From positions 1-61,327 of the forward strand of contig JAFYTT010000299.1 of assembly GCA_017558715.1 (NCBI GenBank): a stretch of 61,327 bases of DNA. Reading direction: 5' to 3'. The DNA comes from Clostridia bacterium. GTDB lineage: Bacteria; Bacillota; Clostridia; Oscillospirales; CAG-272. Positions 3,597 to 61,327 of the stretch are shown one piece after another (within the stretch, counting starts at the first letter, position 1; every line of letters starts with the position of its first letter). The notes beneath the pieces are model-generated. The model saw nothing but the letters and a program-made list of their open reading frames with translations. It had not been told where the DNA came from and made no database searches. The position numbers and the translations under genes are program-made.

Positions 3597-4709
3597 TTAC
3601 TGCAGATCCTCGATTTTTCTCTCGAACTCCGAGACCACACCAGCGTAATTCTCACCCTCGGAAGTTTCCAGCCGGGAGGAGACCTCCTCCTGCTTATCCG
3701 GATACAAATGCGAATACGTCTGCAGCGTCGTCTGGATGTTTTCGTGCCCCAGGCGTTCAGACACCAGGAGCGGAGAGAAACCCATCTCGATCAGAAGCGA
3801 AGCGTGGGAGTGCCGGAGGTCGTGAACGCGGATCCGTTTCACGCCTGCAGCTTTGCTACCACTCGCCATTTCATTCGTGAGGACGTGCTTCGTGAAATAG
3901 AAGAGACGATCGCGCGGCTCATAGTCCACCAGCTGATCGGCGTAGTCGCGGATCAGAGCCAGGACGAAACGAGGAACCGAGACGACACGGTTCGAGCGCG
4001 GCGTCTTCGGAGGCTGGATAACCGTCTCCCCTTTGACCTGCGCTGCCGTTTTATTGATGGAGATGCGCGACCGCTCGAAGTCCACGTCCAGGAGCGTCAG
4101 AGCCAGAAGCTCCCCGGACCGCATACCAGTCCAGAACAGCAACTCGAAAGCCAGCCTCGCGGCTGGTTTTTTTACGCACTCAATGAACCGGCGGAATTCA
4201 TCCCGCGTCCAGAACTGCATCTCATCCGCCGTCTTTTTCCCGAAGGGACCACACACCACGACCGGATTTGACGGCAACCCATAGAACCGGACGGCATAAT
4301 TCATCACCGCCGACATTTGATTATTGACGGTCTTCAGATACGTGGGAGAATACCCCGCAGGATCCGCGAGGAGATCGTTCTGCCAGCGGCGAATCATCGT
4401 GGGCGTGATTTCGTTCACCGGCACCGACCGGAACGTCGGTAGAATTTTAGAATCGAAGAGCCAGCGCTTATTCTCATACGTCGTCGGGCGAAGCCGAGTG
4501 GCGCAATCCTCCATGTAGAGCTCCACCAGGGAGCCGAAGGACATATCGGTACCGCCGCCCTTCTTCTTCAGGAATTCCCGCTCATACTCCAGAGCCTCCC
4601 GGCGCGTTTTGAATCCTTCCTTCTTTTTCTGCCGGCGCGTGCCGTCCCAATCCTTATACCGGAACGAGACGAACCACGTGCCGCGTTTTTCATTTTTATA
4701 GACCGGCAT
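3597..4709 (-). CDS. int: Tyrosine recombinase / phage integrase
   Basis: C-terminal RVHDLRHSHASLL...LGHENIQTTLQTYSHLY (R-H-R-Y catalytic signature). ATG at 4709 preceded by ggaaggagg. Confidence 0.9.
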   Translation of the reverse strand: MPVYKNEKRGTWFVSFRYKDWDGTRRQKKKEGFKTRREALEYEREFLKKKGGGTDMSFGSLVELYMEDCATRLRPTTYENKRWLFDSKILPTFRSVPVNEITPTMIRRWQNDLLADPAGYSPTYLKTVNNQMSAVMNYAVRFYGLPSNPVVVCGPFGKKTADEMQFWTRDEFRRFIECVKKPAARLAFELLFWTGMRSGELLALTLLDVDFERSRISINKTAAQVKGETVIQPPKTPRSNRVVSVPRFVLALIRDYADQLVDYEPRDRLFYFTKHVLTNEMASGSKAAGVKRIRVHDLRHSHASLLIEMGFSPLLVSERLGHENIQTTLQTYSHLYPDKQEEVSSRLETSEGENYAGVVSEFERKIEDLQ

Positions 4710-4734
4710 CAGACCGCCTCCTTCCTTTGCACAG

Positions 4735-4824
4735 TACAAGCACGGTGCTTTCCGCGCCTTATCCCTTAAACCTTAAACTTCAAACCTCATCCCTTAAATG
4801 GGGTACCTCAACCCTCAAACGCGG
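4735..4824 (+). repeat. Copy A of a two-copy element: 14-mer TACAAGCACGGTGC plus a 70-nt G-depleted CCTTAAAC-type array
   Basis: 4755-4824 aligns without gaps to 25821-25890 (55/70 identical by hand). Both are preceded by TACAAGYACGGTGC. The only G-run is the central TGGGG. Confidence 0.7.
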
Positions 4825-5302
4825 AACGGTTCCGCAGGACGTAGTCGCGGACATACCAGTCAAAGAGAACCAGCAGCACACCAACGACGCCACCCAGAAT
4901 CAGGTTGACGACCGCCATGACGATCAGCCAGACCTTCCGACCTTCAAAGTACGGAACGACGTGCGGATTGCCGGGCGTGATATTTTTACAATTCCGAAGA
5001 GCCACAATGGCATTGATAACATTCCAGACGCCTGCGGCCGCAGTATAGACCATGAGCAGCTGTACAACGCCGATCAGAAGCCAGGCAACACCGGAGACAA
5101 CCTCGCAGCGCTTCGCCTTCAGAGCGACCGCAGCGGGACCAGATACCGGCGCCTTCTTCTGCTTCACCGTTTGCCTGATCGTCACCGAGTACGGAGCCGA
5201 GCACCCAGGGCAGCTGACAGAATAAACGCCTGCCGCGTTCGGAACCTCGACGGAATACCGGCGGCGGCAGGACGGACACATTATATTCACTTTAACCAAC
5301 AT
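4808..5302 (-). CDS. Zn-ribbon / multi-pass membrane protein (lysogeny-module accessory gene)
   Basis: CPSC...CPGC at the N-terminus followed by about 3 hydrophobic helices. Located between int and the repressor. Confidence 0.6.
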   Translation of the reverse strand: MLVKVNIMCPSCRRRYSVEVPNAAGVYSVSCPGCSAPYSVTIRQTVKQKKAPVSGPAAVALKAKRCEVVSGVAWLLIGVVQLLMVYTAAAGVWNVINAIVALRNCKNITPGNPHVVPYFEGRKVWLIVMAVVNLILGGVVGVLLVLFDWYVRDYVLRNRSAFEG

Positions 5303-5346: not shown

Positions 5347-5754
5347 TCAGGCTTTCTTTTTGAAGTCGATGAAGTTTTTACCAGACTGAACTTCATCAAG
5401 CGTTTTGAGCATTTCGATATACTCCTCCGCTTTTTCGCGAGCTTCATCAGAAAGACCTTCCAGCATCTCGTGGACGTCAGGATCGGAAGCGATAGCTGGA
5501 GCGGCCGTGGAAGTACCAGCGGCGCCGACGCTTTCTGGAGCGTGCCCCATTACCGGAGACAACCCCAGGATATAATCAGCGGACACGTCATACAAACGAA
5601 TGAGCTCCTGGATCGTGTCCGGGTCCGGAGCCGAGGAATTAGTTTCATAGCGAGACAAAGACTTGTCGCTCAAGTTGATAAGAGCCATAACCTGCTTCTG
5701 GCTCAAGCCTTTTCTCTCGCGTGCCTTCTTCAGGCGTTCGCCGAAAGACAACAT
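5347..5754 (-). CDS. XRE-family HTH repressor (cI-like)
   Basis: MLSFGERLKKARERKGLSQKQVMALINLSDKSLSRYETN is a classic HTH_3 pattern. ATG at 5754 preceded by aaaggtggg. Divergent from the cro-like gene. Confidence 0.8.
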   Translation of the reverse strand: MLSFGERLKKARERKGLSQKQVMALINLSDKSLSRYETNSSAPDPDTIQELIRLYDVSADYILGLSPVMGHAPESVGAAGTSTAAPAIASDPDVHEMLEGLSDEAREKAEEYIEMLKTLDEVQSGKNFIDFKKKA

Positions 5755-5776
5755 AGTATCCCACCTTTCAAGAGTA

Positions 5777-5805
5777 ATTATAGCACGCTTCCCGATTTTT
5801 GAGAA
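5777..5805 (-). promoter_or_regulatory. Candidate repressor-maintenance promoter (TTCTCA - 17 - TATAAT on the minus strand)
   Basis: Reverse complement shows TATAAT (5777-5782) and a weak -35 (5800-5805), about 22 nt upstream of the repressor ATG. Confidence 0.4.
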
Positions 5806-5811
5806 TATATT

Positions 5812-5827
5812 TCTCGGAATTTGCGAA
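5812..5827. promoter_or_regulatory. Degenerate operator (tctcggaatttgcgaa)
   Basis: The left arm TCTCG is conserved and the right arm is imperfect. Lies between the divergent promoters. Confidence 0.3.
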
Positions 5828-5834
5828 AAAGGTA

Positions 5835-5863
5835 TTGACATCTCGGAAAACGAGTGTTATAAT
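5835..5863 (+). promoter_or_regulatory. Early rightward promoter, perfect consensus TTGACA - 17 - TATAAT
   Basis: -35 at 5835-5840 and -10 at 5858-5863. Drives the cro-like gene. Confidence 0.75.
5841..5855. promoter_or_regulatory. Operator TCTCGGAAAACGAGt (inside the promoter spacer)
   Basis: Inverted repeat CTCG-N5-CGAG. One of at least 5 near-identical copies. Confidence 0.5.
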
Positions 5864-12024: not shown

Positions 12025-12828
12025 ATGGCAAGAACCAGAAACATCAAGCCTGCCTTTTTTGACAACGACGTCCTCGGCGACCTCGAACCCCTGACCAGGC
12101 TTCTGTTCATCGGCCTCTGGTGCATCGCCGACCGAGAAGGAAGACTGGAAGACCGGCCGCGAAAAATCAAAAAGGCGCTGCTCGGATACGACGACGTCAC
12201 CGTGGAGGAAGCGAGCGGAATGCTTCAGCAGCTCGCAGACAGCGGCTTCATCATCCGATACCAGGCAAACGATGAAGACTACATTCAGATCGTCAACTTT
12301 ACCAAGCACCAAAACCCCCACATGAAGGAAAAAGAGAGCGAGATCCCGCCGCCCCCTGGTTTTGAGGCAGTAACACCGACAAGGCACCGTGCAAGCACCA
12401 GACAAGCACCGTGCAAAAATGAGGAAAACGACGACGAAACGCCCGACGGCGAAGAGCCGGCCGCAGAAGAAACGGCACCGAGCCTTCAGGAAAAGAGGTT
12501 CGCAGAATTCTGGGCGGCCTACCCGCTGAAGAAGGCAAAGCAGACTGCGTGGAAAGCGTGGTCAAAAATCAAACCGACGGCCGAGCTCTTCGAGAGAATC
12601 ATGGCGGCGATCGACACATCGAAGCGCAGCGAAGAATGGACGAAAGAGAACGGCAGATTTATACCGCACCCGGCGACATGGCTCAACGGCGGCCGCTGGG
12701 ATGACGAAATGAGGGAGGTGACACCTGGTGGAGGCAATGAACAACCTACTGGCAGCGGCAATGTCCGCTCCACTTTCAAGAGCCGAGAAGGCGGCAATGG
12801 AACCCCCGCAGGCTTCAAGTCAGAATGA
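12025..12828 (+). CDS. Replisome organizer / DnaD-like replication initiator
   Basis: N-terminal RNIKPAFFDNDVLGDL...LFIGLWCIADREGRLEDRP and C-terminal FAEFWAAYPLKKAKQTAWKAW...PATWLNGGRWDDE resemble phage replisome-organizer/DnaD-type proteins. Followed by a DnaC-like loader. Confidence 0.6.
   Translation: MARTRNIKPAFFDNDVLGDLEPLTRLLFIGLWCIADREGRLEDRPRKIKKALLGYDDVTVEEASGMLQQLADSGFIIRYQANDEDYIQIVNFTKHQNPHMKEKESEIPPPPGFEAVTPTRHRASTRQAPCKNEENDDETPDGEEPAAEETAPSLQEKRFAEFWAAYPLKKAKQTAWKAWSKIKPTAELFERIMAAIDTSKRSEEWTKENGRFIPHPATWLNGGRWDDEMREVTPGGGNEQPTGSGNVRSTFKSREGGNGTPAGFKSE
12379..12414. repeat. Iteron cluster ACAAGGCACCGTGC-AAGCACC-AG-ACAAGCACCGTGC inside the organizer gene (candidate ori)
   Basis: Two full and one partial copy of the ACAAGCACSGTGC box in the inter-domain linker coding region, followed by an A-rich stretch. 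Confidence 0.4.
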
Positions 12829-13774
12829 CGACGTAGAACCTGAAGAAAAGAACTACCAGATCCGCAGCGACGTGGCGATAGCTGAAGGCTGGACTATGCG
12901 AAAGGAACCACCGGAGCCGAAACAATGCCAATTTTGCGGCAACACCCTCTACTACTTCGGAATGAAGGACTTCATGGGAAGGCGCGAGGTCTTCCTCTGG
13001 TTCGAGGAACCGGAACGCTGCACTTGCGAAGAAGCACAGAAATACTGGCAAGAGCAGGCTCGCCTCAAGGCGGAAGCCGAAGCAGCAAAGAAACGCCAGG
13101 AGGAAGCGGATAGGATACAGCGCCGCATCGCAAAGCTGATAAAAGACAGCGGGATGCGCGGCCGCTTCACAAACCGAACCTTCGACAAATTCGAGGTCAA
13201 CGACATCAACCGGAAAGCATACGAGAAGTGCAAACGGTACGCCGACAGTTTCCCGATTATGCTCCCGACCAAAGATGATCGCGGAAACGTGACCCCTCCG
13301 AAGAAGGAGCGCAACGGTTTATTTATAACCGGCAGCTTCGGAACCGGAAAGACACACCTCGCCTCGGCCATAGCGAACCAGCTCATGCAGGGCGGCACCC
13401 CGGTCATTTGCATGACGATGATAGACCTCCTGGCGAAGATCAAGAACAGTTTCGACACCGAGGAGCAGGCCACGGAGGCCGAGATCATGAAGCTGTACGA
13501 AGAGATCCCGCTTCTGATAATCGACGACATCGGAAGCGAGCAACCCACCGAGTGGGGATCCACCAGAATCTACGCAATAATCAACGCACGGTACGAGGCT
13601 TATATGCCGACGATCGTGACAACCAACTACACCGGCGACGAACTGATCCGCAGAATGACACCTACATACGGCGGCAAGCTCGGAGACACCAGGAACGCCG
13701 AAAAAACCCTCGACCGCCTGCGCGAGATGTGCGCCGGGATGGAAATGTACTGGGAAAGCTGGAGGTCGAAGTGA
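12737..13774 (+). CDS. DnaC/IstB-like AAA+ helicase loader
   Basis: Walker A GSFGTGKTHLA and Walker B LLIIDDIG. The start is uncertain: candidates are 12728 GTG, 12737, 12797 and 12896 ATG. Confidence 0.75.
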   Translation: MNNLLAAAMSAPLSRAEKAAMEPPQASSQNDDVEPEEKNYQIRSDVAIAEGWTMRKEPPEPKQCQFCGNTLYYFGMKDFMGRREVFLWFEEPERCTCEEAQKYWQEQARLKAEAEAAKKRQEEADRIQRRIAKLIKDSGMRGRFTNRTFDKFEVNDINRKAYEKCKRYADSFPIMLPTKDDRGNVTPPKKERNGLFITGSFGTGKTHLASAIANQLMQGGTPVICMTMIDLLAKIKNSFDTEEQATEAEIMKLYEEIPLLIIDDIGSEQPTEWGSTRIYAIINARYEAYMPTIVTTNYTGDELIRRMTPTYGGKLGDTRNAEKTLDRLREMCAGMEMYWESWRSK

Positions 13775-21274: not shown

Positions 21275-21863
21275 ATCGAGCATGGGAGTCGTAGCAGCAG
21301 GCTATGCGGCGGTCGGGGCGAGGGTGCTGGAAGTCGCCACCGCTCGCGGAATCGAAATCGGCATCAGAGCGGCGATGGACTACCTGGCAGAGGAAAAGGA
21401 AAAGGCAAGGAAGAGCCGATACGACCGCAGACTCCGCAACACCAGACTGCTCCTGAAGAATTACCGCTCCTTTAAGAGACACGCCCAGGGCGCCATTTTT
21501 AACGCCAAGCAGGCAAAGGAGAACGCGATCGACATCCTGGACGGACTGGACGACGGAATGCTCAACGACAACCTCTACGTCGAAGGCATCAAGAAGAGCC
21601 AGCAGCGCACCATCATCATCCTGAACCACGTGGAAGAAATGCTCCGCTACTACCGAATCGCCTGCGAACAGTCAGGCAAGGAAGAAGAAATGCGCCGCTA
21701 CCGCGTCATCATGGCGATGTACATTGACGACGACAAAATGACTGCCCAGGACATAGCGGAAAAAGAGAACATCGAAGGGCGCACCGTTTACAAAGACATC
21801 ACCAACGCCATAAAGCCTTTAAGTGCCTTAATCTTCGGTATTGACAGCATCAAAATCGAATGA
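21264..21863 (+). CDS. Putative late-gene transcriptional regulator (ArpU/RinA/sigma-70 region-4-like)
   Basis: Position immediately upstream of the packaging genes. C-terminal TAQDIAEKENIEGRTVYKDITNAIKPL HTH resembles sigma region 4. Confidence 0.4.
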   Translation: MDSKSSMGVVAAGYAAVGARVLEVATARGIEIGIRAAMDYLAEEKEKARKSRYDRRLRNTRLLLKNYRSFKRHAQGAIFNAKQAKENAIDILDGLDDGMLNDNLYVEGIKKSQQRTIIILNHVEEMLRYYRIACEQSGKEEEMRRYRVIMAMYIDDDKMTAQDIAEKENIEGRTVYKDITNAIKPLSALIFGIDSIKIE

Positions 21864-21874
21864 AACCAGCACCA

Positions 21875-21888
21875 TACAAGCACGGTGC
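21875..21888 (+). promoter_or_regulatory. Intergenic copy of the 14-mer TACAAGCACGGTGC
   Basis: Identical to 4735-4748 and 13/14 identical to 25779-25792. Embedded in the hairpin gcacc-N10-ggtgc. Confidence 0.4.
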
Positions 21889-21951
21889 AAAATGTGGGCA
21901 TTTAATCGGCAAAAGAAAAATGATAAAATGATAGCATGGAGGAATGGACAA

Positions 21952-23601
21952 ATGGCAAAAAAGAAGACCAAGAACACCTTCATCGGGATAGACTACGAGA
22001 CCTCCGCTACACCGAAAGCCACCACGGCTGACGGTGTGCCGGTCTTTTGCGCTCACGACGAACTACTCGCCATCGCAAAAGTTATCCCGAACCCGAAGAA
22101 CCCGAACCAGCACAGCGACGATCAGATCGCCCTGCTGGGCAACATCATCGAGGCAAACGGCTGGAGACAGCCGATAACCATCAGCAAGCGCAGCGGCTTT
22201 ATAGTGAAAGGACACGGACGCCTGGCTTCAGCCATCAAGAAAGGCTGGAAAGAAGTCCCCATCGACTGGCAGGAATACGCCAGCGAGGCGGAGGAATGGG
22301 CAGACCTTATCGCAGACAACCGCCTGGCGGAACTTTCCACGATCGACAACACGAAGCTCATCGACATGATCGCAGACCTGGACACCGGAGAGGTGCCGGT
22401 CGAGCTTACCGGTTATACCGAGGAAGACATCGCCGCCATCATTGCAGCTTGCGAAGGAGCAGACGACACGGTGGACGACAAAGCCGACGCCGTGGCTCCT
22501 GCAGATAACATCCCTATGACCAAAGCAGGCGACCTCTGGTGCCTGGGTCCGCACCGCCTTATTTGCGGCAGCGCAACCGACGAAAAGACCGTCGAGCGAC
22601 TGATGCAGGGCGAGAAGGCGGACATGGTCAACACAGACCCGCCCTACGGCGTGAGCTACGAAAGCCAGAGCGGCAAATTCGACATGATCCAGAACGACGA
22701 CCTCACCGGCGACGATCTGATGAAGACGCTGCTCATTCCGGCATTCAAGAACTACGCCAAATTCACAAAGGACGATGCAGCCTTCTACATCTGGCACGCC
22801 AGCAGCACCCGCCGCGACTTTGAGGACGCGATGACAGCTGCAGGACTTGTCGAGAAGCAGTACATCATCTGGGTGAAGAACGCACCGGTACTCGGACACG
22901 CCGACTACCAATGGGCACACGAACCGTGCTTCTATGCGGAAAAAGCGGGACAAAGCGCACACTTCTACGGAGACAGAGCGCAGAGAACCACCTGGAAGGT
23001 AGTCCTCCGCGACGAAGACGGTACAGCAACCGTGCTCTCCGGAGGTGTAGTCCTTACCGACGGAGCCGGAAACAAGCTCTACCTGGCAGACAAGGTGCCG
23101 AAAGGCAAGAAAATACGGTATATCCGGCTCTCGGAAGGACGGAGCGTCACGCTGTACTCGACGGAGTGCGACCGTTCCACCGACACGTGGGAGGTCTCAC
23201 GTGAGACAAAGACCGAGCACCCCACACAGAAACCCGTGGAGCTCGCAGTCAGAGCCATCGACAACAGCACCGAGGCAGGCAACCTCGTGATCGACTTCTT
23301 CGGAGGATCCGGCAGCACACTACGCGGCGCCGAACTCACCGGAAGACGATGCAACACCATCGAACTCGACCCCAGATACTGCGACGTTATCGTAAACTCC
23401 TACGTCAAGCTCACCGGAAACATCGGTGTAACGTGCGAAAGGGACGGAGAAATCCACCAGTACGTAGAGCTCAAAGAGGAGAACGAAAAAGCCAACGGAA
23501 TCGCGGGGGGGGGGGTACTTGTCAGCCTCTGGAGAGCCGCAAGGCGAACCTTCCGACTGATAGCGAGGACGATCCGCCGCAAACTGAATAAAACCCATTG
23601 A
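21952..23601 (+). CDS. ParB N-terminal (ParB/Srx) domain fused to an N6A/N4C DNA methyltransferase
   Basis: N-terminal IVKGHGRLASAIK ParB-like arginine-patch region. Methylase motifs NTDPPYG (IV), TEHPTQKP and VIDFFGGSGST (I). ATG 21952 lies 8 nt after GGAGGA. Confidence 0.85.
   Translation: MAKKKTKNTFIGIDYETSATPKATTADGVPVFCAHDELLAIAKVIPNPKNPNQHSDDQIALLGNIIEANGWRQPITISKRSGFIVKGHGRLASAIKKGWKEVPIDWQEYASEAEEWADLIADNRLAELSTIDNTKLIDMIADLDTGEVPVELTGYTEEDIAAIIAACEGADDTVDDKADAVAPADNIPMTKAGDLWCLGPHRLICGSATDEKTVERLMQGEKADMVNTDPPYGVSYESQSGKFDMIQNDDLTGDDLMKTLLIPAFKNYAKFTKDDAAFYIWHASSTRRDFEDAMTAAGLVEKQYIIWVKNAPVLGHADYQWAHEPCFYAEKAGQSAHFYGDRAQRTTWKVVLRDEDGTATVLSGGVVLTDGAGNKLYLADKVPKGKKIRYIRLSEGRSVTLYSTECDRSTDTWEVSRETKTEHPTQKPVELAVRAIDNSTEAGNLVIDFFGGSGSTLRGAELTGRRCNTIELDPRYCDVIVNSYVKLTGNIGVTCERDGEIHQYVELKEENEKANGIAGGGVLVSLWRAARRTFRLIARTIRRKLNKTH
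23505..23515 (+). repeat. Homopolymeric G11 tract in the 3' end of the methyltransferase ORF
   Basis: tcgc + 11 consecutive G + tactt, counted directly. Confidence 0.95.
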
Positions 23602-23654: not shown

Positions 23655-24311
23655 ATGGCAGAGACCAAGAAGACCACCAAGAAGGCACCCGCCAAGACGT
23701 CAACGAAAAAGAAGGAACCGGCGAAGAAGCCGGAACCCGAAATGCCGGAAGACATCTGGGAACAGATCCCCGGCGAGAACGCCGACCAGTATGCAAAATT
23801 CTGCGCTTACAGAGACATGGCATACCAGGACGGCAGAAGGCTCAACAAGCGAAGCCTTCGGAGGCTCGCAACGCAGCTGAACCTCAAGGCGGCACGTCCG
23901 CTGGAATTGCTCTCGGTCAAATTCGACTGGACAGCACGGTGCGAGGCTTACGACAAAGACCTCGACTACCGAGCACGGCAGGCGCAGGAAAGCGCCGTCA
24001 TTAAGATGCGCGAAGACCACGCTCTGCTCGCTTCCCAGATGATAAGGAAAGCCACCAAGCGCCTCCTAACAATGGACGAAAGCCAGATATCCGCCTCCGA
24101 CCTGGTAAGGCTGGCGGACGTCGGTGTCAAAATCGAGAGATTGAGCCGAGGCGAAAGCACCGAGAACCAGAACATCAGCGGCGCCGTTTCCCACAAAGGC
24201 ACCGTCAAGGTGTCGGTGGAGACGCAGCACGACCTCTCCTCGCTCTCCGATGAGGAGCTGAATCAGCTTGAGCAGCTACTGGGAAAGGTACATTCAAAGT
24301 CCGGCGTTTGA
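23655..24311 (+). CDS. terS: Terminase small subunit
   Basis: Position directly upstream of and overlapping terL. Lys-rich N-terminus. RBS aaaggagga. Confidence 0.6.
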   Translation: MAETKKTTKKAPAKTSTKKKEPAKKPEPEMPEDIWEQIPGENADQYAKFCAYRDMAYQDGRRLNKRSLRRLATQLNLKAARPLELLSVKFDWTARCEAYDKDLDYRARQAQESAVIKMREDHALLASQMIRKATKRLLTMDESQISASDLVRLADVGVKIERLSRGESTENQNISGAVSHKGTVKVSVETQHDLSSLSDEELNQLEQLLGKVHSKSGV

Positions 24312-25767
24312 TGCCGGAGCGCTTCACGCCGCGATCCTGAAGGAGAAGGCGGAGCGCAGCCTTTCAGATTTCATCGTGCAGGCGTGGCCAGTTATCGAAC
24401 CAGGCACGACATACGTGGACAACTGGCATATCGGACTGATAGCGGAGCACCTGCAGGCGGTAAACGACGGCGAATGCCGCCGCCTTATTATTAACATTCC
24501 GCCCCGACACATGAAGTCCATCGAAGCGACAGTCTGCTACCCCGCATGGACGTGGGCAAAGCGACCGGAGAAGCGCTTCATCAAGGTAAGCTACAGCGAT
24601 AGCCTCTCACGAAAGCACAATATTCTCACCAGAGACATCATCACCAGTCCGTGGTACCAGGAGAACTGGGGCGAGACGTTTACCCTCAAGGACGACGTCA
24701 ACCGTCAGAACGAATTCGAGAACAACCACCACGGCATGATGTACAGCACATCCGTCGGCGGCGCTATCACCGGTAACGGTGCCGACGTAATCATCATAGA
24801 CGACCCGCAGAACCCGCTCATGGCGAACAGCGAGACGGAGCGAGCCAACAGCATCAACTTCTTCAAAAACACGCTCCAGACGCGACTGAACGACCCGAAG
24901 ACCGGCGCCATTATCATCATCATGCAGCGACTGCACGAAAACGACCTCACCGGCTACGTCTTATCGGAAGACCTCGGATACACCCACCTCTGCCTCCCTG
25001 CAGAAGCACCGGAGCGCACGGTGATCACGTTCCCGAAGACCGGCAAGACAGTCATCCGGGAAGAGGGCGACATTCTGAACCCGCAGCGCTTCGACCACGA
25101 AGTCCTGGCAGGCTTGAAGAAATCAATGGGAAGCCTGCAGTACGCGGGACAATTCCAGCAGGTACCCGCACCGGCAGAAGGCGTCATATTCAAGCGCGAC
25201 TGGCTGAACAACTTCTACAGCGACGGAGCGGCACCAAGCACAATGGACATCCAGAGCTGGGATATGGCATTCACCAAGAGCGAAGGATCCGCAAAGGTAG
25301 CCGGCTACGTCATGGGACGACACGGCTCGGACATTTACATCAAAGACCTGGTGAACGACAAGATGAGCTTCACCGAATCGGTCGCGGCCGTCCGAACCCT
25401 TTCCGGCAAATGGAGCAGAGCCAGAGCGAAGGTGGTCGAGAACAAGGCAAACGGACCCGCCATCGTTGACCTTCTGAAGAAGGAGATCCCCGGAATGGTG
25501 GAATTCAACCCGAAGGGCAGCAAGGAAGAACGTGCGATCAGCGTGACGCCATACTTCGAGGCGGGAAATATTCACTTCCCGGACCCGAAGACGCACCCCT
25601 GGGTACACGACCTTATAAAAGACCTTCTGATATTCCCGAAGGGCACATTCAAGGACACCGTGGACGCCCTGGTGCAAGGCATTCTCTACTTGATGGATAA
25701 GCCGACCACCACCGGACCACCGAAGAACACAACACTCTCCAAAGAGAGCTACTGGCGCGGAAGATAA
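24268..25767 (+). CDS. terL: Terminase large subunit
   Basis: PRHMKS (Walker A-like region), VIIIDDPQN (Walker B) and a C-terminal nuclease-like region. TTG start 10 nt after gaggag. No in-frame ATG exists near the 5' end. Confidence 0.85.
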   Translation: MSSYWERYIQSPAFDAGALHAAILKEKAERSLSDFIVQAWPVIEPGTTYVDNWHIGLIAEHLQAVNDGECRRLIINIPPRHMKSIEATVCYPAWTWAKRPEKRFIKVSYSDSLSRKHNILTRDIITSPWYQENWGETFTLKDDVNRQNEFENNHHGMMYSTSVGGAITGNGADVIIIDDPQNPLMANSETERANSINFFKNTLQTRLNDPKTGAIIIIMQRLHENDLTGYVLSEDLGYTHLCLPAEAPERTVITFPKTGKTVIREEGDILNPQRFDHEVLAGLKKSMGSLQYAGQFQQVPAPAEGVIFKRDWLNNFYSDGAAPSTMDIQSWDMAFTKSEGSAKVAGYVMGRHGSDIYIKDLVNDKMSFTESVAAVRTLSGKWSRARAKVVENKANGPAIVDLLKKEIPGMVEFNPKGSKEERAISVTPYFEAGNIHFPDPKTHPWVHDLIKDLLIFPKGTFKDTVDALVQGILYLMDKPTTTGPPKNTTLSKESYWRGR

Positions 25768-25778
25768 CCAAAGCATTA

Positions 25779-25890
25779 TACAAGTACGGTGCGAGCATCG
25801 GAAAAGCACAGAACTATCCTCGCCTTAACCCTCAAACCTTATACCTTAAACCTTAACCCTCAAATGGGGAACCTTAAACCTTCAATACGG
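25779..25890 (+). repeat. Copy B of the two-copy element: 14-mer TACAAGTACGGTGC plus a 70-nt G-depleted CCTTAAAC-type array
   Basis: 25821-25890 aligns to 4755-4824 (55/70). Bracketed by the inverted repeat aaaagcac (25802-25809) / gtgctttt (25909-25916). Occupies an unusually long 183-nt terL-portal gap. Confidence 0.7.
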
Positions 25891-25950
25891 CAAGTGGCAC
25901 CCTTCCCGGTGCTTTTGCAATATAACAACCCGAAGAAAGGAGGAAACACA

Positions 25951-27393
25951 ATGGCAAACAGCATGAAAGAACTCGGTCGCCTCGGTCAGAAACGATACGG
26001 CGGCTTTTTTTACGAGGAATTCCTGAAGGAGCTGCAGGGCAGAAAAGGCATCGCGGTCTACCAGGAGATGAGCGAGAACGACGACGTCGTCGGCGCTATT
26101 CTCTTTGCGATCGAAATGCTAATACGCCAGGCAATCTGGGACGTGCAACCAGGCGGAACCACACCGGCAGACGAAGAAGCGCGAGACTTCGTGCTCTCCT
26201 GCATGGACGACATGAGCGACACCTGGAGCGATACCGTCTCGGAAATCCTCTCATTCTTAACCTACGGCTGGAGCGCCCACGAAATCGTCTACAAGCGACG
26301 CTGCGGCAAGCGGAAAGACCCGCGCCTTCGCAGTAAGTACACAGACGGTCTCATCGGTTGGCAGAAGCTCCCCATCAGAGCGCAAGAGACGCTCTACGAA
26401 TGGCTGTACGACGGCAACGATAACATCGTCGGTCTGGTACAGAACCCGCCTCCGGACTTCGGACTGATTAACATCCCGATCGAGAAGCTCCTGCTTTTCA
26501 AGACCAAGAGCCGCAAGGGCAACCCCGAAGGACGAAGCATCCTGCGAAACGCATACCGCGACTGGTACTTCAAGCGCCGCATTCAGGAGATCGAAGGCAT
26601 CGGTATCGAAAGAGACCTCGCCGGACTTCCCACAATGACCGCGCCGGAAGGACTGAACATCTGGGACGAAGAGGATCCGGAAATGGTCGCAATGCGAGCA
26701 GCTGCAGAGCGCGTCGTTCAGAACATCAGACGCGACAGCCTCGAAGGACTGGTCGTGCCGAACGGCTGGAAGGTGGAGCTTTTGAGCACCGGCGGACGCC
26801 GGCAGTTTGACACCAGCGCCATCATCGAGCGCTACGACAGCAGAATCGCCATGACGGTACTGGCGGACTTCATCCTGATGGGACACCAGAGCGTCGGCAG
26901 CTTCGCGCTTTCGAGCGACAAAACGAAGATGTTCAGCATGGCGATCGGCTCATACCTCGACATTATCTGCGAAGTTTTCAACAACGTCGCAATTCCCGCC
27001 CTTATCGATATAAACGGCGACCATTTCGCAGGCATCACGGACTACCCGCAGCTGACACACGGCGACGTGGAGGACGCGAACCTCGAAAAACTGGGCAACT
27101 TCATCAACCAGATGGTAGGATGCGGCGTCTTGATCCCGGACGAAGGTCTGGAGGATTTCGTCAGAGACGCAGCCGGAATGCCGGAACGCCTCGAAGACTG
27201 GGACGACAAAGAAGACACGTCGGCCAGCGACGGCGGTACCGACCCGAACGGCAACCAGAAAAACCCCACAAAGCCTCCCAGCTCCAACGTCTCCCCGGAT
27301 GACGACGACCTCGACACCGAGGAAGAAGACGCAGAAGACCTGGAAAAAGCCAAAAAGGCACGCCAGAGGCTCGGAAGGAAGGCGAGACGATGA
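25951..27393 (+). CDS. Portal protein
   Basis: 480 aa, directly after terL and before an SPP1 gp7/Mu F-type gene. ATG 25951 preceded by gaaaggagga. The track start 25789 reads through the repeat element. Confidence 0.8.
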   Translation: MANSMKELGRLGQKRYGGFFYEEFLKELQGRKGIAVYQEMSENDDVVGAILFAIEMLIRQAIWDVQPGGTTPADEEARDFVLSCMDDMSDTWSDTVSEILSFLTYGWSAHEIVYKRRCGKRKDPRLRSKYTDGLIGWQKLPIRAQETLYEWLYDGNDNIVGLVQNPPPDFGLINIPIEKLLLFKTKSRKGNPEGRSILRNAYRDWYFKRRIQEIEGIGIERDLAGLPTMTAPEGLNIWDEEDPEMVAMRAAAERVVQNIRRDSLEGLVVPNGWKVELLSTGGRRQFDTSAIIERYDSRIAMTVLADFILMGHQSVGSFALSSDKTKMFSMAIGSYLDIICEVFNNVAIPALIDINGDHFAGITDYPQLTHGDVEDANLEKLGNFINQMVGCGVLIPDEGLEDFVRDAAGMPERLEDWDDKEDTSASDGGTDPNGNQKNPTKPPSSNVSPDDDDLDTEEEDAEDLEKAKKARQRLGRKARR

Positions 27394-37195: not shown

Positions 37196-37365
37196 TACTG
37201 GCCGGAGGCAAGGCAACGGTTCTCCATCACATTTTTCAAAGGCAAGGGATAACACCGGACGAAGTGATGGCAAAACCGCCCGGCGTCCGTGCCTTTATGT
37301 TCGCCTCCACCAGAGTGCAGGTGGAAGCGGAAAATAACAAGCTTCATGGAGAGGAGGAATCGTAA
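36683..37365 (+). CDS. Tail assembly chaperone, -1 frameshift-extended product (gpG/gpGT analogue)
   Basis: Hand translation of the -1 frame (LILAGGKATVLHHIFQRQGITPDEVMAKPPGVRAFMFASTRVQVEAENNKLHGEEES*). It fills the otherwise non-coding 170-nt gap and ends overlapping the TMP start (TAATG). Confidence 0.55.
37186..37192 (+). promoter_or_regulatory. -1 programmed ribosomal frameshift slippery heptamer A_AAA_AAC
   Basis: Codons gca aaa aac taa end the chaperone ORF. The -1 frame from c37192 stays open for 57 codons up to TAA 37363-37365. Confidence 0.6.
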
Positions 37366-40300
37366 TGGCAGCTGAAGCATTCCGAATCGAAATACCCATT
37401 CACGTCGAAGACAAAACCGACCCCGGCGTCAGCAAGGCGACGGAGAAGATGAACAAATTCGACAAGCAGAATGAGAAGACCAAGAAGCGGCTCGATCAGA
37501 TGAACAAGACGAAGTGGCAGGTCGCCATTGAAGCGGTCGATAAAGTGACCAGCGTCGTGAGCAAGATCGGAACCACCGTCAGGGGCGTCGCCGGCAGGGC
37601 GTGGAGCTTTACGATGGGCGTCGTAGATAAAGTCACGGCACCCGTCAAGAAGATGATATCAGTCCTGGGCGATATGCTCGGCATTTCAACAGCCGTCTCG
37701 ACAGTCCTCGCGGGTCTCTCGATCAAGAACGCATTAGAGGCGTCCGCCGAATCCTCCCGAATGCTGGCACAGCTGCAAGTGTCGGCAAAGAACATGGGAA
37801 TTGACGACAGCGGAATCCAGAAGATCCTGGATAAAGCCTCGCAAATCCAGCAAACCACGATGTACTCGGACGACGCAATGACCGGCGCAGCTGCCGAACT
37901 TGCGACGTACTTCGAGGACACCGAAGCCATCACCCGAATGATGGATACCGTAATCGACTACGCGGCCGGTATGTCCGGAGGCGTGGAACTTTCCACGGAG
38001 GAAATCATCGACTACACCACCAACCTCGCGAAGATGACCACCGGAGCCTACGACGCCATGACGAAGAAAGGCTTCGAGGTAACTGACGCCCAGAAGAAGA
38101 TCCTCGAAACCGGCACCGACATGGAGAAGGTAGCCGTAATCGAGAGCATCATCCAGGAGAACTGGGAAGGAATGGCGCTCGCCATGAGCAACACCCCGAC
38201 CGGACAGCTCACCAAGATGAAGAACTCCTTCGGCGACATCAGCGAAATGATAGGCGACAAATTATCCCCAGGGGTAACGAGCCTCTTCAGAATGCTGAAC
38301 AACAAGATGCCGACCATCTCCAAACTCCTCGAAGGCGGCGCAGATGCAGCAGGAGCGTGGCTGGAAGAATTCATGCCAACGCTTGAGGACTGGATCGACA
38401 GCGCCATCGAGTGGGTGGACAATTTCGGAAAGCGCGTAAGCGAAGTACTGGGCAGCGACGAATTCAAGAAAGCTGACCTCTTCGGAAAAGTCAAAATCGC
38501 GTGGAACAAGATCATCGCGGAACCCTTCAGCGAATGGTGGGACAGCACCGGCAAGGCGTGGTTCGCGGAGAAAATGAACGGAGTCGGCGAAGCCATCGGC
38601 TCCGGACTGACGACTGGACTACTCGCACTACTCGGAATCGACCTCGACAAAACCCTGCAGGACGGTACCAGCGTAGGCGGAGCGTTCATCGAAGGCTTCA
38701 AGAAAGGCTTTGACACCGAAAAAATCACCGAAGCTCTGAAGGAATGGGCAGACAACAACAAGGAGGTCGTGATAGGCATCGGCGCCGTGGTAGGCTTCAA
38801 CCTTATCACCGGAATCGCCGGCAAGCTCAACGACCTGATCTCCCTCTTCAGGAAGGACAGCGGCGGATCCTCCGCAGCTGACACCGGAAGCCTCGGCGCA
38901 ATGACGGTAACAAGCACAACCACGACCGTCAACGGTACCGTGGTCAACGTTTACGGTGCAACCGTGAACAACGCCAGCGGCAGCGGCGTAGGAACTGCCC
39001 TGAAGAACTTCCTGCCTTCTCTGGCAGGCGGAGCTGCAGGAACCGGTCTCCTTCTCGGCGGCGGAAAAACCATCGCCGGACTGCTCGGAAGCGGCGGAGC
39101 CAAGATCGCAGGTCTCCTCGGAGGAGGAACTGCGGCCGCAGGAGGCACCGCAACCGGACTGACAGCTGCAGGTAGCTGGTTGAGCAAACTGCTGACCCTC
39201 GGCTCGACTTCTTCTGTAATTGGCGCAGACGGAACCCTTCTCGCCGTTCAAGGAGGACTGGGCGGAACCCTCGGCAGCTTTGCAGGCGCTCTCGGAAGCG
39301 GAGCCTCAACAGCGGCAGGAGCCGCAGCGGTAGGCGGCGCATCCATCAGCGGCATCATCGGCGGCATTCTCGGTCTCGGCTCGGCAGCGATCGACCTCTT
39401 CCAGGGTATCGGCAAGAGCAAAGAGGGAGACAAGAAGGCAGCCAAAGACGAATACTGGAAGGCAGGAACCAAGACTGGTATGGTCGGCGCAGGCGCAGGC
39501 ATCGGCGCAGGCATTGGCGCACTCTTCGGAGGCGTTGGCGCAGGACCCGGAGCACTCATCGGCGCAGGCATCGGCGGAATTATTTCGCTTTTCACCGGCG
39601 ACAAAGCCGGCAAGGCACTCTCCGACGGTTCAGACGAAGGCGGCTGGCTTTCCAACGCGTGGGAAGGCACGAAGAAATTCTTCAAGGAAGACCTCGGAAA
39701 ATTCTTCACGCAAACCATCCCGAAAGGCTGGAACAGCTTCTGGGGAGCAATCTCGAACTTTTTCACGACCACAATCCCGACCTGGTGGGGCGGCTTGAAG
39801 GAGAAGGTCTCGACCTTCTTCACAGAGACGATCCCGGAGAAATGGGACGAAATGTGGGAAGGGATCGGCGCCTTCTTTACGGAAGACGTGCCATACGCCA
39901 TAGGCTACGCCTGCGGTAAGATCGAGATATTCTTCACCGAGACAATCCCTGGCTTCTTCGGAGACCTCTGGGACGGAATCAGCACATTCTTCTCTGACAC
40001 GCTGCCTACCTGGGCAAGCGACGTCTGGAATAACCACATCGTCCCATTTTTCACAGAAACCATCCCCGAATTCTTCGGCGGAATCTTTGAAGCTATCGGA
40101 ACCTTCTTCACCGATACCCTTCCCACCTGGGCGTCGGACGTTTGGAACAACTCGATCGTTCCATTCTTCACCGAAGACATTCCGAACTTCTTCAGCGGAC
40201 TGTGGAATTCAATATCAACATTTTTCACGGACACCCTGCCGACGTGGGCATCGGATACGTGGAATAACCATATTGTGCCCTTCTTTACGGAGAGCATCCC

Positions 40301-41015
40301 GTCCTTTTTCTCAACCCTCTGGAATTCGATCTCGACGTTTTTCACAGAGACGCTGCCTACCTGGGCAAGCAACATCTGGAACAACAACATCGTGCCGTTT
40401 TTCACGGAGACAATCCCTGGCTTCTTTGCGAGCATCTGGGACGCCGTGACGAAATTATTCACAGAGGCGATCCCGACCCTGGCATCGAACATCTGGGGAG
40501 CCATCAGCGGATGGTTCAGCAGCATCGGCGACTGGTTCGGCGACGTTTGGGACAAAGTGAGCGGCTTCTTCGGAGCCGGCTATAACGACGCGAAAGGCAA
40601 GCACGCATGGGGCGGCATTATGCACTCCCCGCACGTGGGACTTGTCGCAGAAGACGGACCCGAAGCAATTATTCCTCTTTCGCCCAGCAAGAACGCAAGA
40701 GGACTCGACCTCTGGATGAGAGCCGGCGAACAGCTCGGCGTCAGACCTTACGCAGAAGGCGGAATCGTGGGAGATATCCCCGAAGATATTCCGGTCTCAA
40801 CCTTCAGCGGATCCGGCGGAGGAAACAACGTCGAAATCAAGGTAGAGGTCAACCCGCAATTTGTAATTGAAGCCAAAGACGCAGGCTTTGATGGCGAGAG
40901 CTTGATAGCCGTCATCAAGGCACACATCCGCGAACTGGTGGACGACATCGGCGATGAGCTGGCAGACCGCCTCGCTCGCGTCTTTGCAAATATGCCTGTG
41001 AAGGGAGGAGCGTAA
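37365..41015 (+). CDS. Tape measure protein
   Basis: 1216 aa. Gly/Ala-rich TM-like middle region, tandem FFTETIP...TLPTWAS...WNN.IVP repeats and a C-terminal GLVAEDGPEAIIPL motif. Confidence 0.9.
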   Translation: MAAEAFRIEIPIHVEDKTDPGVSKATEKMNKFDKQNEKTKKRLDQMNKTKWQVAIEAVDKVTSVVSKIGTTVRGVAGRAWSFTMGVVDKVTAPVKKMISVLGDMLGISTAVSTVLAGLSIKNALEASAESSRMLAQLQVSAKNMGIDDSGIQKILDKASQIQQTTMYSDDAMTGAAAELATYFEDTEAITRMMDTVIDYAAGMSGGVELSTEEIIDYTTNLAKMTTGAYDAMTKKGFEVTDAQKKILETGTDMEKVAVIESIIQENWEGMALAMSNTPTGQLTKMKNSFGDISEMIGDKLSPGVTSLFRMLNNKMPTISKLLEGGADAAGAWLEEFMPTLEDWIDSAIEWVDNFGKRVSEVLGSDEFKKADLFGKVKIAWNKIIAEPFSEWWDSTGKAWFAEKMNGVGEAIGSGLTTGLLALLGIDLDKTLQDGTSVGGAFIEGFKKGFDTEKITEALKEWADNNKEVVIGIGAVVGFNLITGIAGKLNDLISLFRKDSGGSSAADTGSLGAMTVTSTTTTVNGTVVNVYGATVNNASGSGVGTALKNFLPSLAGGAAGTGLLLGGGKTIAGLLGSGGAKIAGLLGGGTAAAGGTATGLTAAGSWLSKLLTLGSTSSVIGADGTLLAVQGGLGGTLGSFAGALGSGASTAAGAAAVGGASISGIIGGILGLGSAAIDLFQGIGKSKEGDKKAAKDEYWKAGTKTGMVGAGAGIGAGIGALFGGVGAGPGALIGAGIGGIISLFTGDKAGKALSDGSDEGGWLSNAWEGTKKFFKEDLGKFFTQTIPKGWNSFWGAISNFFTTTIPTWWGGLKEKVSTFFTETIPEKWDEMWEGIGAFFTEDVPYAIGYACGKIEIFFTETIPGFFGDLWDGISTFFSDTLPTWASDVWNNHIVPFFTETIPEFFGGIFEAIGTFFTDTLPTWASDVWNNSIVPFFTEDIPNFFSGLWNSISTFFTDTLPTWASDTWNNHIVPFFTESIPSFFSTLWNSISTFFTETLPTWASNIWNNNIVPFFTETIPGFFASIWDAVTKLFTEAIPTLASNIWGAISGWFSSIGDWFGDVWDKVSGFFGAGYNDAKGKHAWGGIMHSPHVGLVAEDGPEAIIPLSPSKNARGLDLWMRAGEQLGVRPYAEGGIVGDIPEDIPVSTFSGSGGGNNVEIKVEVNPQFVIEAKDAGFDGESLIAVIKAHIRELVDDIGDELADRLARVFANMPVKGGA

Positions 41016-45064: not shown

Positions 45065-45736
45065 ATGAAGAAAGACTTTGACATTGAACGCTTCCCAGAA
45101 AGCGAAAGCGCAAAACAAATGATGAGCCGCATCTCGCCGATTTATGAGAATTCATACGTCGGCAAGTGGCTCTTCGAGGTCATGGGCATCGAATGGGACC
45201 AGGCACGACAACTCGTAGAGAGCCTCCGTCAGCAATGCTTCCTCGAACAATGCACCTGGGGCATCAGATACTGGGAGCAGCGCTACGGTTTAGAGGTTGA
45301 CGAAACAAAAGACCTCGAAACCAGACGCGCGGCGGTAATTGCGAAGCGCGGACGCAAGCAGCCGCTCACCCCAGCCACCCTGGAGGATATTCTGGAAGCG
45401 CTCACCGGAAGACCGGTGACGGTGAACGAAGACAACGGCAACTACACCTTCAAGGTTTCCATCGAAGAAGGAACCTCGACCGTGGACTACATCGCGGTCA
45501 TCAAGAAGATCAACACCGTGAAGCCTTCACACCTCGCATATTCCATCGAGCTGCCCCGCAAGGGCACGCTCTCCATGTACTTCGCGGCCGCCGTCCACGA
45601 AATGAAGACGGTAGCAATCACGGAGTACGACGATAGAGGCGTTTCAGACGTCGTATGGCTTGTTGATGAACTCGGCAACACGCTGGCGGATGAAAATATG
45701 AACGTCTTTATTGACGACGAAAGGAGGCAAACATGA
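45065..45736 (+). CDS. XkdU-like (DUF2313 / P2 gpI-like) baseplate protein
   Basis: Synteny. QCTWGIRYWEQRYGL motif. Confidence 0.6.
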   Translation: MKKDFDIERFPESESAKQMMSRISPIYENSYVGKWLFEVMGIEWDQARQLVESLRQQCFLEQCTWGIRYWEQRYGLEVDETKDLETRRAAVIAKRGRKQPLTPATLEDILEALTGRPVTVNEDNGNYTFKVSIEEGTSTVDYIAVIKKINTVKPSHLAYSIELPRKGTLSMYFAAAVHEMKTVAITEYDDRGVSDVVWLVDELGNTLADENMNVFIDDERRQT

Positions 45737-54164: not shown

Positions 54165-54186
54165 AAGGCGCAGCCGCAATCCTAAA

Positions 54187-54215
54187 TATCTGCCCCGCAT
54201 AAGTCGGGGCAGATA
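54187..54215 (+). other. Perfect 11-bp stem / 7-nt loop hairpin 36 nt downstream of the VR (DGR target-recognition hairpin and/or terminator)
   Basis: tatctgccccg-cataagt-cggggcagata. Confidence 0.7.
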
Positions 54216-54236
54216 ACCAGGAAGAAAGGAGAAACC

Positions 54237-55031
54237 ATGTCGGTACTACGGAGCAAAAGAAAGACCGCATTCAGCGAATTTGAAAGGCAAATGGGGATCA
54301 TAGTCCGGCACACCAGCGACCGGCTCAACTCCGTGCCGATGCGGTATCGAAAATTCATGTACCCGAAAATTTACGACCCGACGAACCGAGCATACACCGA
54401 CGTCATTCTCGCCAACGAGCAGAACGTCAAGACGCCGGAGGGAGCACGGCAAAGAAGCGCACTCTTCACCGATGCGCTTCGCGCCATACTCTCGCTTCAG
54501 AAACCCCTTCTATCGCTTTGGAACATCCTCGACATTGGCGAAGACAGCGCAAAGCAATGGGCGGATATGCTCAACCGGGAAATCGCCTTAATTTTCGGAG
54601 CAACAAAAAGAGAGGAGGTGCAGCCGATGATCGTAGCGCTGCCCAAACGCAAAATGCAGAGGCTCGCGTTCCTTCAGAAGATGGCGGAGCTTCACAAATA
54701 CACCTACGAGAAAATCGGACACGCACCGAATCATTGTAAGGACTTCTTGAGCGGAAGGATAGCTGATCACATCGACACCGCCCTCTGCTCGGTCGTCCTT
54801 GCGAACCACAAAATACCGGAGACCAGGGCGGAAGCAGAAAAGCGCGAGCGCTACATTCAGGCGGCAATAGATAGCCTCAACGCTATGCAGAGACCGCTCC
54901 TGGCTCTTTGGAACATCATGGACTACAGCGAAAAGACGATGGACGACTGGGCAGGTCTCCTCGACGAAGAGCTGAAACTTCTGGAGGGAATGAAGAAGGC
55001 GGATCGCGCCCGATACCAAGACCTTCGGTAG
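54237..55031 (+). CDS. avd: Accessory variability determinant, internally duplicated (tandem Avd-Avd, 264 aa)
   Basis: Position between VR and TR. The two halves align (KRK..., VILANEQN/VVLANHKI, LQKPLLSLWNILD/MQRPLLALWNIMD, KQWADMLNREIALI/DDWAGLLDEELKLL). Basic helical protein. Confidence 0.65.
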   Translation: MSVLRSKRKTAFSEFERQMGIIVRHTSDRLNSVPMRYRKFMYPKIYDPTNRAYTDVILANEQNVKTPEGARQRSALFTDALRAILSLQKPLLSLWNILDIGEDSAKQWADMLNREIALIFGATKREEVQPMIVALPKRKMQRLAFLQKMAELHKYTYEKIGHAPNHCKDFLSGRIADHIDTALCSVVLANHKIPETRAEAEKRERYIQAAIDSLNAMQRPLLALWNIMDYSEKTMDDWAGLLDEELKLLEGMKKADRARYQDLR

Positions 55032-55059
55032 AAAGGAGACATCGGGTGGCGTTCTGTCA

Positions 55060-55194
55060 ATGGTTTGGTGCGAACAACTTCTGGCTTCGCGGCGCGGCAG
55101 TCACGAACGCGACGAACTTCGGCAATGTGAACAACAACGGCAACGCGAACAACAACGGCAACAACGCGACGAACAGCAATGGCGTCTGCCCTCG
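55060..55194 (+). repeat. DGR template region (TR)
   Basis: Contains 14 AAC and 2 AAT codons in the VR reading frame. Located between avd and RT. Confidence 0.9.
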
Positions 55195-61301: not shown

Positions 61302-61327
61302 GGAAGGAGGCGCTGATGATTTACACC
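61187..61327. repeat. Terminal direct repeat copy 2 (identical to 1..141)
   Basis: See copy 1. Confidence 0.95.

Follow-up and report, generated by a model that had tools for sequence, protein, structure and literature searches.

The question raised by contig JAFYTT010000299.1 (assembly GCA_017558715.1, Clostridia bacterium), whose whole length of 61,327 nt is called here the window, concerns the role of two similar, G-depleted 70-nt sequences on its plus strand. One of them (copy A, 4755–4824) lies upstream of an integrase gene (int) and the other (copy B, 25821–25890) between the genes of the large terminase subunit (TerL) and a portal protein. The window represents an entire phage genome that was assembled as a circle, with positions 1–141 identical to 61187–61327. 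The original prediction, made from the sequence alone, listed trans-antisense coupling of late transcription to int expression, a ribosome standby or decoy array, a phased protein-binding array and a miniature mobile element as possible roles. The analysis described below confirmed the observation and partly supported the interpretation: copies A and B are probably out-of-gene copies of phage replication-origin-type DNA modules and not RNA genes. Each module has the same order on one strand, with two to four iterons of 11-bp period, then about nine G-poor heptamers and then an inverted repeat. Most phages of the replication initiator family concerned keep the whole module in the linker of the initiator gene; the clade of the window keeps only the iterons there, and its two complete modules are extragenic, the first being upstream of int and the second in the TerL–portal interval.

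Heptamer tracts, iterons and inverted repeats in the window

The alignment of copies A and B gave 55 identical positions of 70 without gaps, as had been claimed, against a genome-wide background for copy A of 17.7 ± 3.6 and a best minus-strand match of 32. When the register was moved by ±7, 14 or 21 nt, the identity fell to just 35–39 of 70, so the two copies are true paralogues, whose likeness goes beyond a shared repeat unit. The gapless similarity reaches further upstream, to about position 4730. The depletion of G was also verified, with 6 and 5 G per 70 nt in copies A and B, respectively, relative to a genome mean of 18.9; C exceeds G about 3:1 across the tracts, which are two of the three lowest-G 70-nt windows on the plus strand of the genome. 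The cumulative GC skew of the genome declines monotonically, with no sign of an origin.

The repeat unit, originally put at about 8 nt, turned out to be 7 nt long. Tandem Repeats Finder (TRF) reported period 7 with the consensus CCTTAAA for both copies, each of which accommodates nine units of the consensus CCTYAAA. Tract A extends over 4757–4819 on the plus strand (CCTTATC, CCTTAAA, CCTTAAA, CTTCAAA, CCTCATC, CCTTAAA, TGGGGTA, CCTCAAC and CCTCAAA) and belongs to the least stable 0.5% of 50-bp windows. Tract B, at 25823–25885 on the same strand (CCTTAAC, CCTCAAA, CCTTATA, CCTTAAA, CCTTAAC, CCTCAAA, TGGGGAA, CCTTAAA and CCTTCAA), belongs to the least stable 0.2% and is the strongest period-7 region in the entire genome. 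The right end of copy A shares the final 17 nt of the neighboring gene for a Zn-ribbon membrane protein, and the final 12 nt of tract A lie inside that gene. The single central G-run described earlier is present in both copies but is not conserved, being replaced by CCGATTA, CGGATATA or CCCTTATG in relatives. A periodicity scan for G-free CCY.A heptamers detected A and B alone in the window and the same two positions alone in related contigs.

The 14-mer TACAAGYACGGTGC, seen in front of both copies (4735–4748 and 25779–25792), is indeed there, but it stands 6 nt before copy A and 28 nt before copy B, and it is one unit of a separate iteron family with an 11-nt period, CAAGCACnnTG. This iteron occurs at four sites of the window, all on the plus strand. 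The pair by copy A (4729–4750, GCACAGTACAAGCACGGTGC) includes the 14-mer and the palindromic AAGCAC-G-GTGCTT, and the array by copy B (25779–25814) is composed of three to four 11-nt units, TACAAGTACGG TGCGAGCATCG GAAAAGCACAG. The array at 12374–12416 is located in the linker of the initiator gene and consists of three 11-nt units and two 22-nt units (GCACCGTGCAAGCACCAGACAAGCACCGTGCAA; TRF periods 11 and 22); it is the strongest period-11 region in the genome and no heptamer tract follows it. The third extragenic site is found at 21860–21890 (CCAGCACCATACAAGCACGGTGCAA). Behind this site lies a C-poor, A+T-rich tract (about 21895–21965) holding two copies of AAAATGAT and no heptamers, which ranks third among the least stable sites of the genome at 100-bp windows and is placed just upstream of a gene for a ParB-domain DNA methylase. 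The region 21860–21965 could be a more classical origin of the iterons plus AT-rich type, or just a promoter region.

Both tracts are closed by inverted repeats. The palindrome GCGGAAC-G-GTTCCGC (4821–4835) at the 3' end of the Zn-ribbon gene gives a hairpin in minus-strand RNA. In one relative (L042), a palindrome is kept by means of a different Ser codon (TCC to AGC) as GCTGCGG-TT-CCGCAGC, with the peptide VLRNRSAFE unchanged. Such a codon swap suggests selection for a hairpin or a binding site bordering the heptamer tract. Copy B is followed by an inverted pair of iteron-like units, GCAAGTGGCACC / GGTGCTTTTGC (25890–25918), a hairpin just before the ribosome-binding site (RBS) of the portal gene with a fold z of −2.85, whose arms GCACCC/GGGTGC are invariant in relatives and whose loop is variable. 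Tract B is thus bracketed by iterons.

Two other roles of the tracts were rejected. A coding role is contradicted by the open frames that cross A and B, whose phases with respect to the element do not agree. A phage attachment site (attP) at copy A was discarded because the gene order int, element, Zn-ribbon is unbroken in all relatives and many prophage-derived contigs end at int, which puts their attachment side downstream of this gene; int is also succeeded by a strong terminator (3562–3524).

Modules in the initiator genes and in relatives of the phage

The gene at 12025–12828 (plus strand) encodes a replication initiation protein (PHROG family phrog_16167, E = 2.7e-52). A total of 43 loci with homologues of this initiator were retrieved and 39 were analysed. 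In all 28 loci with 36–64% initiator identity, iterons within the gene are directly followed by G-poor heptamers (CCTGATT, CCCTTAA, CCGGATT). In the clade of the window (55–90% initiator identity), the in-gene iterons are present and the heptamer tract was found in none of 11 loci. Tracts A and B occur in exactly this clade, whose initiator genes lack the heptamers; four of its 11 contigs also give the TerL or int locus, and they carry tract A, tract B or both. In several other phages, non-coding modules made of iterons, six to seven perfect CCTGATT units and a GC hairpin are located about 2.3 kb from an initiator homologue, one of them right after a cI-like repressor gene, and the initiators near these modules have repeat-free linkers. 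The module therefore has two complementary configurations, in-gene and extragenic, of which the window represents a mixed case. The statement that this was not a recognised element was fair for the heptamer tract, but the link to the initiator gene had been missed.

The same arrangement was observed in two cultured phages, Pseudomonas phage Fyn8 and E. coli phage Louie, in which in-gene iterons of the AAGCACC type precede CCTGCTGATTCCC..CCTGATTCC heptamers. The gene carrying the module takes the position of lambda O, ahead of a helicase-loader gene, and in Fyn8 the in-gene module is the sole period-7 and the sole period-11 region of the whole genome.

A profile built with nhmmer from 15 distant in-gene modules, close relatives being excluded, was searched against the window. 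The best match was copy B (25770–25859, E = 2.9e-9), with iterons and heptamers both covered. The next matches fell at 12384–12415 (E = 0.005), at 21867–21890 (E = 0.1) and at the copy A iterons (E about 0.25, with matches on both strands at E 0.25–1.3). A nucleotide search with the copy A region against 50,697 GenBank phages gave no match.

The connection with the initiator was also visible in the IMG/VR viral contigs, at least 120 of which contain the 15-mer CTGATTCCTGATTCC; 97 of these 120 have it inside or beside an initiator homologue on the same strand. GCAC-type cores numbered 2.09 per 160 nt where the N-terminal domain of the initiator was at least 55% identical to that of the window and 1.0 at 45–55% identity, with a background of 0.26. 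More divergent N-terminal domains are paired with other iteron classes, such as AACGGTTA or CGATTTATCGGTAGC. Over 93 loci, the iteron type tracks the N-terminal domain of the initiator and the heptamers stay constant. An uninterrupted (CCTGATT)n array brings a TGA within about three units in all reading frames, so in-gene arrays must be interrupted, which explains variants such as CCGGATT.

The relatives of the window phage were retrieved through TerL and int, and both tracts recurred in them at the same two positions. With 88–99% TerL identity, the TerL–portal region contains three to four nCAAGCACnnT units, seven to nine CCTTAAA-type heptamers, GCACCC..GGGTGC and the portal RBS. Upstream of int, with 82–97% int identity, one or two AAGCAC units (the iteron unit being kept in L039–L043), 8–10 heptamers and the palindrome ending the Zn-ribbon gene were identified. 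The phages with about 80% TerL identity have 6–8 iterons, an insert of about 170 nt, 4–5 more iterons and the connector GCACAGTTCTTTCC, followed by an array of 6–8 CCTATTA heptamers and then by a small hairpin; between this and the portal gene, there is often a moron gene. The connector is common to the distant TerL relatives and the in-gene modules. In three genomes carrying both copies, the within-genome identity of A and B was 0.79 (window lineage), 0.65 and 0.74, versus 0.61–0.75 between genomes, i.e., it was raised in the window lineage only and stayed at the between-genome baseline in the others.

The TerL–portal region of the relatives is also an insertion hot spot (L005, about 3714–4300; L015, L018 and L028, after the heptamers; L022, L036 and L186; L021, L023 and L185). 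Among the inserts are a small protein that by eye resembles the ribbon-helix-helix type and has a consensus promoter of its own (TTGACT-17-TATAAT), another small protein (about 80 aa) and a membrane protein whose tail is rich in Pro and Glu. The hot spot parallels the moron cluster beside oriR of phage SPP1.

Some sequences outside the family were met during the searches. The human faecal phage L321 (MT835537) encodes an initiator with 31% identity and has other iterons (GCGGCAATCTGCGGC), behind which a G-poor tract with a 6-nt period is located (AATCCG/AATCCA); the 7-nt register of the second half of the module is thus not universal. The pattern CCTYAAATGGGGWACCTYAA retrieved two true relatives and one chance match, the unrelated viral contig L001 (IMGVR_UViG_3300022697_000157), in which about seven palindromic 14-mers ACCTCAWATGRGGT occupy the non-coding region 190–370 and resemble an operator array of a dimeric protein. 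The 16-mer CCTTAAACCTTAAACC was present in 63 contigs, mostly unrelated microsatellite-like arrays or chance matches. Two of the contigs, both A+T-rich, are L075 (about 1150–1300) and L095 (1440–1630), which contain about ten AAAGCA(C) repeats spaced by 11–12 nt and then AAACCTT heptamers in a replication-type gene; the product of this gene is not detectably related to the window initiator, and an open reading frame (ORF) judged by eye to be DnaB-like follows in L075. CCTTAAACCTTAAACC is identical in both, though the proteins are only 46% identical. These loci may perhaps represent the same kind of origin under another initiator family, which is suggestive only.

Proposed role of the modules and alternative explanations

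According to the mechanism proposed here by analogy with known phage origins, the initiator would bind the iterons as double-stranded DNA, and the adjoining heptamer tract, with its low duplex stability and strong strand asymmetry, would melt. The melted tract could then be the entry site where the DnaC-like helicase loader, encoded after the initiator gene (12728–13774; phrog_50, E = 7e-70, and DnaC/DnaI-type matches in NCBIfam), places the host helicase. Initiator binding, melting and origin firing are all postulated for A and B on these grounds. Recognition by a protein, more than instability alone, is suggested by the strict 7-bp register, in which CC recurs every 7 nt. It is also conceivable, though rather unlikely, that the tract forms a sequence-specific platform in a 7-nt register for the assembly of an oligomeric single-strand-binding replication protein, which could be the C-terminal domain of the initiator, the DnaC-like loader, the helicase or the primase.

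The heptamers are kept across a very large phage initiator family, from phages of Proteobacteria to those of Clostridia, while the iterons diversify. CCTGATT, the commonest heptamer of proteobacterial phages, contains CTG, and CCTATTA and CCTTAAA of clostridial phages contain CTA and TTA. CTG is reported to be the preferred start trinucleotide of proteobacterial DnaG primases, and CTA and TTA are reported to be those of firmicute ones. If this match holds, the heptamer tract would be a candidate built-in priming array tuned to the host.

Phage origins composed of iterons and a melting tract are already known, as are second origins in late regions. The lambda ori is placed midway within gene O and consists of iterons and an AT-rich tract, and two iterons with the AT-rich tract suffice for unwinding (PMC7466680). 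The modules described here are similar in that tandem initiator repeats directly adjoin a strand-asymmetric tract, presumably easily melted, and in that most of them lie in the linker of an initiator gene that precedes the gene for a helicase loader, an arrangement corresponding to the O/P position of lambdoid genomes. However, their iterons are of the GCACnGTGC type with an 11-bp period instead of the 19-bp iterons of lambda, and the tract in the window follows a strict 7-bp repeat, in which CC recurs every 7 nt, has only about 53% A+T and is located outside the gene, in two copies. In SPP1, gene 38 contains oriL, and oriR is found among morons of the late region, both origins having direct repeats and an unwinding element (PMC6316719). 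The window phage likewise has two similar origin-type sequences, with repeats in the initiator gene and in the late (virion) region, and the intergenic region of copy B also holds morons in relatives. There is, however, no sequence relationship; the late origin of SPP1 is found after gene 7 and copy B between TerL and the portal gene, the in-gene site of the window is devoid of the module's second half, and one more complete copy is present in the lysogeny module, upstream of int.

The heptamer arrays themselves recall the omega sites of plasmid pSM19035, to our knowledge the only well-known system with this exact geometry. The omega sites are unspaced 7-bp direct repeats, about 7–10 per array, at several sites of one replicon, as are the arrays in the window. 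The omega arrays have the WATCACW unit and are located in promoters, serving as operator and centromere, whereas the CCTYAAA arrays are coupled to initiator iterons. Two separated clusters of short initiator-binding repeats, both engaged in replication, are also a feature of the small genome of satellite phage P4 (ori and crr). These consist of one type of octamer bound by a primase-helicase, unlike the modules of the window with their two repeat types (11 and 7 bp) in a fixed order and polarity.

Several points weigh against the origin interpretation. The tracts contain only about 53% A+T, and at 70–100 bp windows they fall within the unremarkable least stable 1.4–9%, so they are not a classical DNA-unwinding element. 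The heptamers of copy A are tied to the in-gene modules via copy B only, the profile by itself reaching just the copy A iterons. The in-gene heptamers double as coding sequence for a conserved peptide, PADSL..LIPDS, so that their conservation could be partly at the protein level. Replication slippage can maintain periodic arrays without selection. The genome has two complete modules and two iteron-only sites, each of which may or may not fire. The initiator has no detectable similarity to a solved structure (PDB) or to a curated NCBIfam family, and a literature search by motif sequence and keywords returned no description of a module that combines variable iterons with constant G-poor heptamers, in-gene or extragenic, and serves a very large, structurally uncharacterised initiator family; none is given in the paper on mycobacteriophage RepA either (PMC7157519).

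The modules might bind the initiator without firing and act as roadblocks or regulatory sites, for example as a fork barrier that sets off the transition from theta to rolling-circle replication, as a means of initiator titration or as a coupling of int and portal expression to the initiator level. Such a barrier has been proposed for SPP1 oriR, where bound gp38 would stall forks (PMC6316719). Four iteron sites are more than one origin requires, and copies A and B lie directly upstream of the RBS of int and of the portal gene, respectively. Such non-firing roles have nevertheless a low probability. The initiator gene of the clade lost its heptamers, so some extragenic site must supply the role of the tract, and other phages keep a single extragenic module beside a repeat-free initiator, as would suit an essential origin more than an accessory barrier. 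It is improbable as well that the tracts are functionless remains of an origin once located in the gene, moved by recombination and kept periodic by slippage and gene conversion. The number of units (7–9) and their sequence do vary among relatives, the G-run comes and goes, the A–B identity in the window lineage suggests recent gene conversion, and the TerL–portal region is a hot spot of recombination and moron insertion. On the other hand, both sites retain iterons, heptamers and the inverted repeat in the same order down to 79–82% TerL or int identity, the whole array switched its heptamer type (to CCTATTA) in some relatives, and decay would be hard to reconcile with the complementary distribution relative to the in-gene tracts and with extragenic modules in unrelated phage groups.

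Explanations at the RNA level fared worse. The sense RNA of copy B, transcribed in the late operon, could pair with the int leader, since both copies are on the plus strand, int is on the minus strand and the identity amounts to 79% over 70 nt. The gap of 98 nt that separates int (start 4709) from the Zn-ribbon gene (stop 4808–4810) had been given correctly, as had the int RBS, GGAAGGAGG, and the leader does carry AAGG/GAGG/AGGG boxes resembling Shine-Dalgarno sequences, ten of them instead of about eight, which could serve as a ribosome standby or decoy. These boxes are, however, merely the complement of CCTT/CCTC. No Rfam match was found at the tracts at gathering thresholds or at E ≤ 1 in the scan that had been suggested, folding of the tract RNA versus shuffles gave z of −0.1 and +0.7, with no excess structure on either strand, and no promoter-like sites that would delimit a small RNA were found at A or B. 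The A–B identity in the two other genomes was no higher than between genomes, and homologous modules reside in initiator genes or beside repressor genes, where the antisense geometry is absent. Antisense pairing and a standby or decoy array are accordingly very unlikely. The composition of the tracts also resembles that of Rho-utilisation (rut) sites, which are C-rich, G-poor and unstructured. The 70-nt plus-strand RNA has such properties, with its excess of C over G, and might load Rho, which at A would stop antisense transcripts crossing the lysogeny module and at B would adjust how much transcription continues from TerL into the portal gene. The chances of this are slim, as neither the strict 7-nt register nor the obligatory adjoining iterons nor the location in the initiator gene in all 28 distant homologues would be explained. 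Equally little probability is assigned to a heptad operator or centromere of a ribbon-helix-helix protein of the pSM19035 omega type and to a packaging (pac) site bound by the small terminase. The contiguous 7-bp direct repeats at several sites of a replicon would suit the former, and the position of copy B in the packaging module beside terS and terL the latter. The heptad CCTYAAA is unrelated to WATCACW, no ParA or omega-like gene was detected among the 36 window proteins scanned (a subset of the ORFs), positions upstream of int or within initiator genes would be unexpected for a pac site, and the initiator linkage in the IMG/VR contigs fits neither. A miniature mobile element is unlikely, too: there are two copies per genome, at the same positions in all relatives, no terminal inverted repeats exist, and the flanking 14-mers are direct, not inverted, and stand at unequal distances. 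Among the roles first listed, the phased protein-binding array came closest to the origin interpretation preferred here, a DNA-level array tied to the replication initiator.

Genomic setting and meaning of the modules

TerL genes with 99% identity to that of the window were found on long contigs of Clostridia metagenome-assembled genomes, namely of Ruminococcus sp. from goat colon and Oscillospiraceae from sheep colon, which identifies the window phage as a temperate phage of gut Clostridia. Copy A belongs to the minus-strand lysogeny module and is placed between int (3597–4709, with an arm-binding and a tyrosine recombinase domain) and the Zn-ribbon membrane gene (4808–5302), beyond which lies a cI-like helix-turn-helix gene (5347–5841); all three are on the minus strand. 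A promoter-like site on the plus strand (4324–4351; TTGACG, 16 nt, TG-GAGAAT; 9 of 12 matches) was noticed inside int, antisense to it and facing copy A. If active, it would drive transcription through the copy A module from the iterons to the heptamers, which recalls the transcriptional activation of the lambda ori. Copy B occupies the intergenic region between TerL (24268–25767) and the Mu-type portal gene (25951–27393), downstream of terS (23655–24311), which lies upstream of TerL.

Other repeats were also noticed in the window. A diversity-generating retroelement was recognized at 54017–56718, with the RT-2 RNA at 55196–55479 (67 bits), the sole Rfam hit in the window, and a pair of 142-nt repeats (54017–54158 and 55060–55201, 85% identity) corresponding to the variable and template repeats. 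The first repeat copy lies at the 3' end of a 2039-aa ORF (48045–54164), and the ORF at 55384–56718 probably encodes the reverse transcriptase of the element. Long in-frame tandem repeats were found in two structural genes, with a 57/117-nt period within 39690–40480 (1216-aa ORF, 37365–41015) and with a 114–117-nt period and units ending in GDxWYD within 45830–46920 (ORF 45733–48033).

If the origin interpretation is true, variable iterons with constant G-poor heptamers behind them would be a signature by which origins could be located in thousands of cultured and uncultured phages with this initiator family, and an origin could either sit in the initiator gene or move out of it and duplicate. 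The 7-bp register of the half proposed to melt is without a counterpart in textbook origins and points to a defined protein–DNA geometry. The candidate origins of the window phage would adjoin int and sit in the packaging operon, which would bear on the coordination of replication, integration and packaging, and the similarity to SPP1 oriR suggests that they take part in switching to concatemer synthesis.

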